Below the pieces are notes generated by a model. That model saw only the letters and a program-made list of their open reading frames with translations. It was not told the origin of the DNA and did not search any database. A DNA stretch of 64,000 nucleotides from a virus. Made by a program: the position numbers and the translations under genes. Below, piece by piece: positions 7,755 through 25,160 of this stretch. Where the stretch lies: the IMG/VR virus record IMGVR_UViG_3300031369_000002, positions 24,666-88,665 of that record; one strand, written 5' to 3'. How positions within the stretch are numbered: position 1 is the stretch's first letter; each line of letters starts with the position of its first letter.

Positions 7755-7800
7755 TTATCTTATGTTCTTATTATATAATAATCCTTTACATGTGTCAAGC
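7755..7800 (-). promoter_or_regulatory. Class I (early) sigmaA promoter with palindromic -35 and CATAAGATAAA start motif
   Basis: TTGACA(7793-98)-17-TATAAT(7770-75). Confidence 0.85.
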
Positions 7801-16274: not shown

Positions 16275-16851
16275 CCAAAAGAGTCATAGCATAAGGAAAG
16301 CCCTCCCAGTTATCCACTCCCGCATTTTCTAAAGCATTAAGCGTGGCCTCAGACTTTCTTAAACCCTTAACTTCCTTTTCTAACCTCTCTATCCACTCCA
16401 TATGAGTGAATTTAGCATTTAAAAGCTCTTTATTATTAGACCTTAACACCAGATTATCCTCTCTTACTTTTTGATAGCTTTCTATTAAAGCCTCATCTAA
16501 AACAGTTAAGTCTTTAAGCTCTAATACTATCTGAATAAACATGGCATCCTTTAATTTTTGAAATATATTTAATTCAGCAAAAGGAACCAAACAAGCATGT
16601 TGTTTCTTTTCTCGATCAGTGACAGGAGAATACTCCCAACCATCTTTTAATTTGGCCTCCATCCACACATCATGGGCCTCATAAACAGTAATCTTAGGAT
16701 TATCTAAAACCTCTTCCACAGTATATATTACCTGACTCTTTCTTTCCTCAGACAAATTATCATAAGTCTCAATACAATCCTCACTATTATAAATACGTAT
16801 AACCTGTAACAAATTAAAAGCTATCTTTGCTATATATTCTTTATCCATCAA
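16255..16851 (-). CDS. RyR-domain protein
   Basis: HDVWMEAKLKDGWEYSPVTDREKKQHACLVPFAEL...QKLKD RyR repeat; C-terminal LENAGVDNWEG phage motif. Confidence 0.8.
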   Translation of the reverse strand: MMDKEYIAKIAFNLLQVIRIYNSEDCIETYDNLSEERKSQVIYTVEEVLDNPKITVYEAHDVWMEAKLKDGWEYSPVTDREKKQHACLVPFAELNIFQKLKDAMFIQIVLELKDLTVLDEALIESYQKVREDNLVLRSNNKELLNAKFTHMEWIERLEKEVKGLRKSEATLNALENAGVDNWEGFPYAMTLLDDDFKC

Positions 16852-17631
16852 TAAAATTTCCCCTTATACTTTATATTTTGTGTAGCGGTAATAATACTAT
16901 TACCCTTACCACAATTAATCTGTCCTATATTATTTTTATGATTGACGACTACTTTTCCATCTTCCATAGTTTCATTGATATTATCTATAATCTCATCAAC
17001 TAAAATAATCTCAGACTTAAGCTCTGCAATTTCCAGAGCTTCATTTACAGTCTTTAACATACTTATAATTTCTCTCTTCATTTCATCTTTTTTAACCATT
17101 TTAGCACTCCTTTTATTTAATTTTTCTATCACACAGAGGACAATAATAACTTCCCTCTTTTAAGAGCATACAACTATTATGGATATTTGCCCCACAATCA
17201 CAGATTCCAAAAACAGTATCATGCAATAGACCATCACAAGCATTACATATTAAAAATCCATCTTTATCAAACATATCCATATTAAAGCTCCTTTCTATCT
17301 TAACATTTTAAAACCCTAATTCTTTCTTAAAACAGGATATACAAAACTCTGCAAACTGATCCTCGTCTAAATCATCTTTTAAATAAGCTTTATAATACAA
17401 ACAATTATCTAAAAAATCAAAGTCGTTATCAGTTAAAATCTCTTTAATACATTTAGATACTACAAGCTCATTAAAGAAACTTGACTCCTTTAATAACCAC
17501 TCAAAAAACTTTTTATTATTCTTCTCAGCTTCACTCTCTACGATATATTTTTTACACTCAGGACACCATTTCATAGGTTTATTCTCTAAAACAGTATCAC
17601 AAGCAGAACAAACCTTTTTATCCTTATTCAT
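16848..17631 (-). other. small hypothetical genes
   Basis: ORFs 16848-17132 and 17308-17631 (CSAC/CPEC), plus short Cys ORFs. Confidence 0.6.
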
Positions 17632-17777
17632 TTAATCATCCCTTTCCATAACTTCCCTTGCATAATCCTCAAACTCTGCCTCATCTGAAATATAAGTCTG
17701 ACATACAGGACACCAGCCACTGCCATCATCAATAATAAAGTCACAATAAGGACACTCTTCACTAAAAAAATCCATGT

Positions 17778-22029: not shown

Positions 22030-22719
22030 ATGATCTCTCCTTCAAAAAATTTTATTTATCTTATGGTTATATATTATCATGACACTTTACACATGTCAAG
22101 GATAAATATAAAAAAATAAGAGAGTATCTTAAATACCCTCTCAGCTTTATTACTTCTAATCAATTTTCTTTATATCCTGCCAATTCAAAACATACACATC
22201 TAACTTATACTCATATTTATCCTTAGCATTCTTAATTTTAGTTTTCTTATACCATATAATATTAGCCATAGGAATAGTTATTTCATCTATAGTAATGCCT
22301 ATAGAATTAATAATACACTCAGCTGTACCCGATTCTAAAAGATCACCCTTATAAAAACTATCTACATAGGCATTAAATTTATCAAACATTTAATCATCCT
22401 TTCTATTCAAATACATACTATCAGTTACTATATCTACAACAGCAACCAACTCTATAGACCCTACAATTGCCCCAGCACCTTCGACAACCCGTCCACCAAT
22501 TACACATTTAAAGTTATTATTCTCCATAACTTCCTCCTATTAAGCATCCTTTCTTATAAAACATATTCCTCATAAAAATCCTCAATGGAATAAGTCTCCC
22601 AGGAATCACCATTATTAACCTCAACACAATCCCCATGACAAACAAAATTGCTAGGGTCTACCTTACAAAAAGTCTCTACCATATCCAACATACTACTCAT
22701 AATATTCCTCCTCTTTTAT

Positions 22720-23472
22720 TTAATTAAAAAATTCTTCTAAATCAATATCATAACAATTATACCAGGCATCTGCATGATAACAATTAACGCTGCCATAATT
22801 AACATCAGGTACCTTTTTAATTTCCACCTCATACTTTTTAGAGTAATCCTTCAAAGGTTTCCATCTAAACTTACGATTAGTAAACATCTCAACTTTTTTA
22901 ATGGTAGCATGTTTTTTATTAAATCCTACCTCTTCTCTTAACTTATTAACTTCTCTACTAAGATGAGAAGCAGTCACCATAGCTGTAGCAGTTTTCTTAT
23001 CTGATATCCAGGCTTTAGTTCTAATAGCCTCATCTCTTTCTCCTATAACTACAGCCTTTTCACCCTCTAATTTTTCAATAGATAATTGCTTTTCAGCAGC
23101 TAACATTAAAGCTTCCCCATAAGTTTTAGGTACATTTAAACTATAGCTGCCAGTCTTTCTAATTGAGGGCAATACTTCACTAGTAACCCACTTCTTAAAT
23201 TTCTTAGCTTCCTCTTTCTTACTTGATAAAATTAAGGAATATAACCCAGATTCATTAATGATAGTTACACTATTTGTCCCTAATTCTTGAATTGAGAGAG
23301 TGGCTCTGTCATCTTCATCAACATGTCTTATCAAAGCGTTATACGTATTAGAATAATCTAAAATATGAGCTACATCCACGCCAATAAACCAAGGCTCCCC
23401 TTCAATCTCTAAAGACCTAATTTCAAATCCTAACCCTTTATCATCTTTCCAAACTTGTAACGCACTGTTCAT
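22720..23472 (-). CDS. Bro-N domain antirepressor-like protein
   Basis: EPWFIGVDVAHILDYSN...IINESGLYSLILSSKKEEAKKFKKWVTSEVLPSIRKTGSY. Confidence 0.92.
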   Translation of the reverse strand: MNSALQVWKDDKGLGFEIRSLEIEGEPWFIGVDVAHILDYSNTYNALIRHVDEDDRATLSIQELGTNSVTIINESGLYSLILSSKKEEAKKFKKWVTSEVLPSIRKTGSYSLNVPKTYGEALMLAAEKQLSIEKLEGEKAVVIGERDEAIRTKAWISDKKTATAMVTASHLSREVNKLREEVGFNKKHATIKKVEMFTNRKFRWKPLKDYSKKYEVEIKKVPDVNYGSVNCYHADAWYNCYDIDLEEFFN

Positions 23473-23492
23473 AAAACTCCTCCTAAATATAC

Positions 23493-23629
23493 AAAGCCCC
23501 TATATACCACCAAGTCCGACCTCAGTTATATAGGGGCTTTTACCTTATTATTTAGGTTTTTTAGTTTGGGTCGGATTCAAACCAAAAAACCTACTCAGGT
23601 ATAATATCAAATTTTAGATTTATAGTCAA
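23493..23629 (-). ncRNA. structured 5' leader: two hairpins with complementary loops (kissing loop) upstream of the Bro-N gene
   Basis: TTGACT(23624-29)-17-TATTAT(23601-06); hairpin 23553-23593 loop AAUCCGACC; hairpin 23493-23540 loop contains GGUCGGA. Confidence 0.7.
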
Positions 23630-23964
23630 CCTCTTAATCTTTTTCCTTCATCAATTCCTCTGCACACTCCGCACAAACATTTAAAACCTGCTTTGTTTTT
23701 TTATGCGTCATTTCAATTAAAAAATAATGTACAGTCTTACTACATTTCTCACACTTAGCAGTATATACAGGCCTCACTATATCCCTCCTTTCTACCATTT
23801 TTCGAGTTTACCGTCAATCATCCAGCCATACTTACAGCGACTACAGTAGCACTTTTTAACCTTTACGGTACCACCTTTAACAAACTGGGTATTTTCATCC
23901 ACCTTATCAGACTTGCCACACTGCGGACATACTTCTTTAACAGCCATATCAATCCCTCCTCATA

Positions 23965-24300
23965 CTATACATTAGGAGCATTAGTCCTTAGAACATAACA
24001 TTCAGGAGCAGGCTCCCAGCAAAAAAACATATTATCCTCATTAATTAACCTATCAATAAATACCTGATAATAACCTAAATGCAAACAAACATTATAGCCA
24101 CCAGCTTTGACCGCACTATCCATAGTATCAGCCAATAAATCATATTTTTCTAAGAGTTCTTTTTTAGGTCCAGTTAACTTAAAGTCAAAAGGAGCAAAAG
24201 ATATCCAAACTACCTTTGATTTCTCAGCAACATTACACATTACTTTTGCTGGCTTAATAGAAATCAAAACATTACTTCTATCTAACAATGTAAATCTCAT
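23965..24300 (-). CDS. hypothetical protein
   Basis: ORF with RBS AAGGAGG after a structured leader. Confidence 0.7.
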   Translation of the reverse strand: MRFTLLDRSNVLISIKPAKVMCNVAEKSKVVWISFAPFDFKLTGPKKELLEKYDLLADTMDSAVKAGGYNVCLHLGYYQVFIDRLINEDNMFFCWEPAPECYVLRTNAPNV

Positions 24301-24315
24301 TTCATTCCTCCTTAG

Positions 24316-24610
24316 AATAAATAAAGCCTCTTATTTTATGTTAAAAGTCAGAGTAACATAAAACAAAAGACTATTTTCATCATGTATTATTATATTTAAG
24401 GTTTTAAACTTGACTCTGACAACAACTTTAAAACCTTAGATACTTTAAATAAAATAAGCCTTCTCCTTGCCTATAGTTGTGATAGGACACGCATTTTCGT
24501 CGAAGCAGAAAACTTAAAGACCGCAAGTGGTTTACACAAGCTAGATTACTAAAATCTCTTCGATAACTTCATCCTAAAAACAATATAACACAAAATGATG
24601 TATCAGTCAA
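24316..24610 (-). ncRNA. ~260 nt structured RNA leader ending in a kissing-loop hairpin pair and terminator
   Basis: TTGACT(24605-10)-17-TATATT(24582-87); hairpin 24397-24438 loop UUGUCAGAGU; 19-bp hairpin 24325-24372 (3 G-U pairs) loop CUCUGACUUU. Confidence 0.7.
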
Positions 24611-24619
24611 GCATAAATT

Positions 24620-24773
24620 AAAAACACCCTAGAAAATTCTAGGATGCTAAAACCTGCAACACATTATAAATTATAAGAAAAGTAAAACTAATATTTATCA
24701 CTTATTATCCAGCACATAATAAATGAACCATTCGACTTAAAAGAAGTATAACATATTAAATCATGCCATGCAA
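24620..24773 (-). ncRNA. candidate sRNA (~115 nt)
   Basis: TTGCAT-17-(TGt)TATACT(24745-50); terminator 24624-24647 plus U tract; a new promoter follows. Confidence 0.4.
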
Positions 24774-25103
24774 CTGACAACGAATTTTAATATCACAAGG
24801 ATTAGCTCCAATATTTTTAGCCACTAATCTAAAAGAATAGCCTTGAGGGCCTCCGTTACGATAAGTAGTATATTGACCAAAAGCCGCACTCATAGGAACA
24901 TTAAAAGGCATATTAGGCACATCCTCAACAAGTTCCGAATCTCTTCTTTGAAAATCAATTTCTATATCCTCAGTATTAGTGATCATCATTAAAACATCTC
25001 TAACAAATTGAATATCATTAAACCAACCAGATTTAACAACGCCACCAACATTAAGTCCAGATACATCAATAACTAGACCCTTATCAATATAATTTGTATC
25101 CAT
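24756..25103 (-). CDS. hypothetical beta-rich protein (start MDTNY)
   Basis: GGAGG RBS before the ATG at 25103; the track start (25160) overlaps a terminator. Confidence 0.65.
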   Translation of the reverse strand: MDTNYIDKGLVIDVSGLNVGGVVKSGWFNDIQFVRDVLMMITNTEDIEIDFQRRDSELVEDVPNMPFNVPMSAAFGQYTTYRNGGPQGYSFRLVAKNIGANPCDIKIRCQLHGMI

Positions 25104-25160
25104 AAAATACCTCCAAAATATTAGTATATTTCCATAATAGCATACTCTTTTTACTAACAC

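Follow-up and report, generated by a model that had tools for sequence, protein, structure and literature searches.

Pairing between RNA loops and sites of the same transcription unit controls the antirepressor or early operons of several phages, namely through the C4 RNA of P1 and P7 and the CI RNA of P4 (CA in N15), and the letters of the pairing loops co-vary. Both C4 and CI are processed from a leader (C4 by RNase P) and act in trans; the sites recognized by C4 cover the ribosome binding site (RBS), and CI uses one segment (seqB) that is complementary to two flanking sites (seqA and seqC). The pRNA of phi29 and the DIS of HIV-1 carry two complementary, co-varying loops on one RNA, which pair between molecules and serve the packaging motor and genome dimerization, respectively. 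The closest described mechanism for the locus reported here is that of the guanidine-IV riboswitch (mepA motif), in which two tandem hairpins are located in the 5' leader, the second of them being a terminator. Kissing of its hairpin 1 with the terminator hairpin competes with completion of the terminator stem, as the linker becomes too short, and leads to read-through (PMC7736828; PMC11611296). The loop nucleotides of this riboswitch are conserved, the pairing is weak and guanidine is required. The zipper-type attenuators of the pLS20 family are ligand-free leader attenuators of Gram-positive mobile elements, in which the sequences flanking a hairpin choose between terminator and antiterminator, and a nested helix extension consumes one terminator strand (PMC13401043). 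In the PR'-tR' units of lambdoid phages, a constitutive promoter is followed within about 100 to 200 nt by an intrinsic terminator and then by genes; the terminator is released by the protein Q, and the RNA that ends there can have a regulatory role of its own, as StxS does (PMC7547250).

The DNA analysed in this study (the window, 64,000 nucleotides) comprises bases 24666-88665 of the complete 88,665-bp genome of an uncultured phage with terminal repeats of 127 bp. In this genome, 130 of the 137 ORFs are encoded on one strand, nearly all genes being on the minus strand, and the composition of the sense strand is extreme (22% G and 10% C, whole genome). No tRNA or tmRNA was found, and a sigma-70 region-2 domain (Pfam PF04542) was not detected in the genome. 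GenBank phages gave zero DNA matches, the clamp protein shares at most 26% identity with that of any cultured phage, and a clamp scan of GTDB genomes returned remote cellular clamps only; judged by the first two comparisons, there is no close cultured phage. Contigs related to the phage occur in salt-marsh, wetland and marine-sediment metagenomes. The genome was compared with one relative, IMGVR_UViG_3300035152_000033, which is about 93% identical in the vicinity of the locus.

The leader of the Bro-N gene

The element is located on the minus strand between a 54-aa zinc-ribbon ORF, the stop codon of which (23634) lies upstream of the leader promoter, and a gene encoding a 250-aa protein with a Bro-N domain (22720-23472, AUG at 23472; Pfam, E 2.4e-27, and PHROGs). 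An earlier note on this DNA had described a sigma-A promoter, two hairpins with complementary loops and an RBS in front of an antirepressor gene, and each of these sequence features was recovered. The predicted sigma-A-like promoter (23601-23629, consensus scan) is composed of TTGACT (-35, 23629-23624), a 17-nt spacer and TATTAT (-10, 23606-23601) preceded by TG-n, and its assignment is by consensus match alone (10 of 12 positions). Hairpin 1 (23553-23593), which begins 1-3 nt downstream of the predicted transcription start, was confirmed by folding and repeat search as a 16-bp stem including one G-U pair on the minus strand, closed by the 9-nt loop AAUCCGACC. Within this loop, the 7-mer UCCGACC (23569-23575) has a predicted probability of 0.98 of being unpaired. 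A linker of 12 nt separates hairpin 1 from the terminator-like hairpin 2 (23493-23540, likewise found by folding and repeat search), which has the apical loop GUCGGA, a weak inner stem of 6 bp and a perfect 14-bp stem (AAAGCCCCUAUAUA/UAUAUAGGGGCUUU) with a G+C-rich base (GCCCC/GGGGC). The complement search identified GGUCGGA in the loop of hairpin 2 (23515-23521) as the exact 7-nt partner of UCCGACC; the sense strand of the 88.7-kb genome contains a single copy of each. Downstream of hairpin 2 lie a U-rich tail (23492-23485; UUUGUAUAUUU if the final UUU of the stem is included) and the RBS AGGAGG (23479-23484), 8 nt past the hairpin and 6 nt before the AUG. The terminator scan omitted hairpin 2, the loop of which is longer than the limit of the scan.

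The duplex of the two loops was calculated at -11 to -12 kcal/mol, or about -7 kcal/mol net of the opening cost. The leader has a fold z-score of -4.5, and its spacer shows the highest structure per nucleotide among the 47 spacers of the genome. Folding of the minus strand yields -52 kcal/mol compared to -40 kcal/mol for the plus strand; together with the G-U pairs in the stems, this favours a pairing in the sense RNA.

Other designs were considered for this leader and rejected. A leader peptide is not encoded, as the leader contains no AUG; a switch by an anti-SD sequence does not fit an RBS that is free in every predicted fold; a classical terminator/antiterminator alternative would require a competing helix, which is missing; and a type III toxin-antitoxin system would have tandem direct repeats in front of the terminator, which are absent. 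A direct repeat family was not found in 23300-23800 beyond chance pairs of 9-11 nt. On the plus strand, a promoter-like site (TTCAAA, 18 nt, perfect TATAAT; 23576-23605) overlaps the minus-strand -10 box. Transcription from this site would run antisense to the 54-aa ORF; the site probably results from the AT-rich, palindromic nature of the -10 region.

A second leader in the same genome

A paralogous double-hairpin leader of the same design, with its own 7-nt pair GUCAGAG/CUCUGAC, is located 800 nt upstream of the Bro leader. Hairpin A (24397-24438, minus strand; 12+3 bp, loop UUGUCAGAGU) carries GUCAGAG at 24420-24414 and is separated by a 24-nt linker from the terminator-like hairpin B (24325-24372, minus strand), which has 19 bp including three G-U pairs and presents CUCUGAC (24353-24347) in the loop CUCUGACUUU. 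Downstream of hairpin B, a U-rich tail and AAGGAGG precede the AUG at 24300 of an ORFan gene (23965-24300, minus strand; 111 aa), near-identical products of which are encoded in relatives of 87-89 kb. The nearest promoter-like site in the consensus scan (TTGACT, 17 nt, TATATT, with TG; 24582-24610, minus strand) lies so far upstream that this leader would be about 250 nt long, with the double hairpin at its 3' end. The 5' part of the leader (24444-24581, minus strand) also shows structure, and its conservation in the relative is about 94%.

Hairpin A resembles hairpin 1 in the base of the stem (AGGUUUU...AAAACCU) and in the spacer AAAUA that follows it, which suggests a common descent of the two with re-coded loops. 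The core hairpins of the second leader differ from those in the relative by one change in 90 nt, at a loop-closing base, compared to an overall divergence of 6.5%. The two codes of the genome also have a core in common, UCYGAC/GUCRGA, with a compensatory exchange of C-G for U-A and located on swapped hairpins, and GGUCGGA of the Bro leader (23515-23521) can form seven pairs including two G-U with UCUGACU of loop B (24345-24351). This may reflect cross-talk or a common origin.

Cassette exchange and a third leader

Homology with the relative extends from 25479 to 23624 and resumes at 22715; the borders are sharp, one just past the -35 box and the other just past the Bro stop codon (23624 to 22716; 16765-17647 of locus L192 in the relative). 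The whole cassette of leader and Bro gene (23623-22716) is replaced in the relative by a KilA-N cassette. Its promoter reads TTGACT, 17 nt, TGtTAGTAT, and it is followed by a hairpin 1' with the 9-nt loop AAGUGCAGC, a linker of 0-5 nt and a hairpin 2' with the apical loop CUGCACA. Past hairpin 2', a U-rich tail, GGAGGAG, an ORF of 33 codons and the KilA-N gene (Pfam E 7e-10) are found. The loops of this leader form a third 7-nt pair, GUGCAGC/GCUGCAC, of which 6 nt lie strictly within the minimal loops and the seventh uses the closing G. The 33-codon ORF (L192 16921-17022) holds a second promoter-like site (TTAACT, 16 nt, TATAAT; L192 16970-16997) right before the KilA-N gene; the leader of this cassette may serve the mini-ORF or be a stand-alone small RNA.

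Further alleles were identified in contigs of other metagenomes, which depart from the genome at this point. A contig of run X10 carries the KilA-N cassette at the exchange site, a contig of run X4 bridges the cassette gap with 638 different letters, and a contig of run X8 diverges at 23604; no match was found for the start of the cassette in X8. At least four alleles thus occupy this site (Bro-N in the phage described here, KilA-N in the relative and X10, and two more in X4 and X8). The leader travels with its gene. A search with the 16-mer spanning the cassette junction returned 6 viral and 119 metagenome loci, the sole real one being the known relative.

Statistics and energetics of the loop pairing

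When only stems of 14 bp or more are counted, the genome contains 65 hairpins and just two adjacent pairs, both of which have a 7-nt loop complement, while random hairpin pairs drawn from the same genome reach 7 nt with a probability of 0.0026. In the relative, at the same minimum stem length, loop complements (8 and 6-7 nt) are confined to the adjacent hairpin pairs of its two leaders; a third adjacent pair shows a complement of just 2 nt. As a background, unrelated loci from phages and metagenomes (2.29 Mb in total) were scanned on both strands, among them 118 that a stem-only pattern search had returned. None of the 246 adjacent strong hairpin pairs in this background reached 7 nt and six reached 6 nt, which bears out the statement of the earlier note that such complementary loops are unlikely by chance.

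The cognate loop duplexes of the three leaders range from -11.0 to -12.9 kcal/mol (-7 to -10 kcal/mol net of opening); for the majority of non-cognate combinations, the predicted duplex is weaker than -6 kcal/mol. The exception is the duplex of the Bro-leader loop 2 with loop B of the second leader (-10.3 kcal/mol), so the addresses are not fully orthogonal. The occurrence of three leaders with three different complementary 7-mers, together with their rarity compared to the background, argues that the loop-loop pairing is real and under selection. Loop co-variation in related leaders, which the earlier note had proposed as a check, was thus found, its basis being three paralogous or allelic leaders. 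From the sequences at hand, the pairing is very probably the feature kept by selection while the letters change, and hence the functional core of the element.

A 6-nt loop complement (AAAGGU/ACCUUU) was also observed between two hairpins of 12-15 bp that are located 30 nt apart at 32301-32178 (minus strand), and it is present in the relative as well. This pair probably lies inside a gene, and by the background test its complement is at chance level.

Comparison with known RNA families and regulatory systems

An Rfam search (cmscan) of the whole window yielded no match at the gathering score, and in 22500-24800 at E up to 10 only chance-level hits were obtained (Phe_leader, PreQ1 and freshwater-2; E 0.9-10). 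Membership in the C4, IsrK/CI, guanidine-IV or pRNA families was rejected on this basis, and the kinship to P1 C4 and P4 CI that had been proposed for the leader found no support. The exact pattern of hairpin 1 has no match in IMG/VR, scans with the ORFan protein across viral and metagenome contigs returned one relative or nothing, and a kissing double-hairpin leader was found neither at 72 Bro loci nor at 23 KilA-N loci of other phages. In the literature, no described equivalent of a terminator leader with kissing loops was found. On the evidence of these loci, the device belongs to this phage lineage and not to Bro genes, and it looks like an uncatalogued RNA control element of phage leaders.

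The pairing of loop 1 with the terminator loop, seen here as 7-nt complements in three leaders, is in common with the guanidine-IV riboswitch, and the resemblance is one of architecture only. In contrast to that riboswitch, the loop letters differ from copy to copy, the 7-bp pairing is G+C-rich, and neither a conserved aptamer-like core nor an Rfam match is present. With respect to C4 and CI, the pairing is one-to-one between the loop of the 5' hairpin and the terminator loop and is not tied to antirepressor genes. C4-like targeting of the RBS was not borne out: the partner 7-mer is located in the terminator loop, 31-37 nt upstream of AGGAGG, and no loop complements the RBS. P4 CI, N15 CA and IsrK differ from the element as well, since every 7-mer pairs with just one partner and there is only one copy of the C-rich 7-mer in the genome. 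Of the interpretation in the earlier note, selected RNA-RNA loop pairing was upheld by the three leaders with their three codes, whereas the connection to antirepressors and to the P1 C4/P4 CI family had to be given up, as the same device precedes the ORFan and the KilA-N gene and is missing from the Bro loci elsewhere.

The 9-nt loops, in which AA is combined with the pairing letters, are reminiscent of the loop layout of the HIV-1 DIS. In contrast to the roles of the DIS and of phi29 pRNA, the second hairpin is here terminator-like and placed before a gene; a pRNA is further disfavoured by the size of the genome (88.7 kb, with terminal repeats) and by the position of the element before accessory genes. 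The arrangement is similar to PR'-tR' units; its promoter matches the consensus, and hairpin 2 has a G+C-rich base and a U-rich tail but a loop too long for the terminator rule of the scan. It differs from the pLS20 zipper in that there is no alternative helix and the complementarity is confined to the loops.

A proposed kissing-loop gate on termination

That the element sets how the gene behind it is terminated or translated, as put forward in the earlier note, is the natural reading of the arrangement. Since hairpin 2 is terminator-like and lies downstream of a strong promoter but ahead of the RBS, the best-supported reading is that loop kissing gates termination. The support comes from the U-rich tail and the RBS directly after the second hairpin in all three leaders, from the exchange of the leader along with its gene, from the low divergence of the second-leader core hairpins, and from the published precedent of a kissing loop acting against a terminator via linker strain (PMC7736828; PMC11611296). 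We tentatively propose, with a confidence that falls just short of even, that the promoter-proximal leader of about 105 nt forms a 7-bp kissing complex which serves in cis as a gate on read-through past hairpin 2 into the cassette. The gate would set the share of transcripts from a strong host-type promoter that read through into the accessory-gene cassette, and each cassette would have its own loop address.

In this scheme, we infer where transcription starts, that it terminates at hairpin 2, in which direction the effect goes and that the element acts in cis. Hairpin 1 would fold first, and loop 2 would pair with loop 1 once the 5' arm and the loop of hairpin 2 have emerged. Owing to the short linker, the stiff kissing complex would then compete with the basal terminator pairs beside the U-tract, and read-through would be favoured, in line with what has been proposed for the guanidine-IV riboswitch. 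As the loop pairing is strong, a ligand would not be needed. Occupation of one loop, either by a factor or by earlier terminated copies of the same leader, would restore termination and thereby provide dose-dependent feedback. The absence of an alternative antiterminator helix from the leader counts against the gate. In addition, the linkers measure 12, 24 and 0-5 nt, so that no one geometry based on strain can accommodate the three leaders; by our own estimate, a kissing complex and a complete terminator could coexist with the 24-nt linker.

A more speculative possibility, which we consider rather doubtful, is that the leaders represent a class of ligand-free, address-coded attenuators. Leader copies that have terminated would titrate nascent ones with a matching code, cassettes would sense their own transcript or genome dose independently of each other, and the device would move with its cassette between phages. 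If the gate operates as proposed, it would be a transcription gate made of RNA only, with neither ligand nor protein, and seven loop letters would hold its specificity and allow it to be reprogrammed by paired mutations. Such a gate would be a new design among leader attenuators, would explain how mosaic phage cassettes bring their own expression control and might provide orthogonal, programmable terminator switches for synthetic biology.

Alternative explanations

A serious rival to the gate in cis, if a somewhat unlikely one, is loop pairing in trans. Transcripts would mostly stop at hairpin 2 and thus give a two-hairpin small RNA, the loops of which kiss those of other copies. These partners could be transcripts still being made, mRNAs that have read through, or another small RNA, joined head to tail into a closed dimer by two kissing complexes. 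The outcome would be a feedback, specific for each address, that acts on termination, translation (the AUG lies 20 nt past the end of hairpin 2) or decay by RNase III. The build of the RNA, opening with a stable hairpin and closing with a terminator hairpin, is the usual one of antisense RNAs, further units of promoter, short RNA and terminator are present in the genome, and StxS sets a precedent, being a phage transcript that is terminated early and works as a small RNA (PMC7547250). Stems of 16-24 bp with linkers down to 0-5 nt would probably make an intramolecular kissing helix of 7 bp sterically difficult. A closed dimer suits any linker length, and according to our own geometric estimate, a head-to-tail dimer is easier to reconcile with long stems and linkers of 0-24 nt than is the intramolecular kissing helix. 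Two leaders with different addresses in one genome, most non-cognate duplexes of which are weak, are in line with a limitation of cross-talk; the strong G-U-containing duplex of loop 2 with loop B speaks against this rival, as the two addresses are not fully separate.

It is unlikely that the element is solely one of structure, stability or processing, in which the 5' hairpin protects the mRNA and hairpin 2 with the kissing interaction is a target of RNase III or simply folds compactly. The 5'-terminal position of the hairpin, the long and near-perfect stems and an RBS free in all predicted folds are compatible with such a role. It leaves unexplained, however, why the stem of hairpin 2 is always G+C-rich or long and followed by a U-rich tail, and why the loops should need to pair with each other.

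Release of the hairpin 2 terminators by a protein antiterminator, of the type of lambda PR'-tR' with Q and with incidental loop complementarity, is quite improbable. The order of promoter, short RNA, terminator and gene recurs in the genome, as would be expected, but the three co-varying loop pairs would not be accounted for. Lambdoid PR'-tR' units are not known to have a kissing loop. A Q-type antiterminator (PF06530, PF03589) and a NusG-like protein (PF02357) were not found in the complete genome, a weak argument given that a divergent antiterminator is possible. Chance, or a feature of the DNA (for example, an inverted repeat bound by a protein, or a site at which cassettes recombine), is highly improbable, because the cassette boundary at 23624, although near the element, falls in the promoter and not in the hairpins, three different sequences rule out one common protein site, the G-U pairs make the stems strand-specific, and no background pair reached 7 nt.

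Other promoters in the window

Near-identical early-type promoters are found on the minus strand with -35 boxes starting at 7798, 8994, 10863, 20098, 22099, 28915, 45364, 49331 and 55578. They have a transcribed tag in common (TTGACAtgTGTAAAGG ... TATAAT ... ATAAGATAAAT) and are usually located right after a terminator. The TTGACT promoters at 23629, 24610 and 25294 are outside this family. The last of these (11 of 12 consensus positions) is strong and followed by a clean terminator about 75 nt on and, after 55 nt more, by the next RBS (25294-25164, minus strand). A convincing loop complement was not detected in this unit, which may encode a small RNA or serve as a further attenuator. The true start of the gene behind it is likely the ATG near 25103 and not the GTG at 25160.
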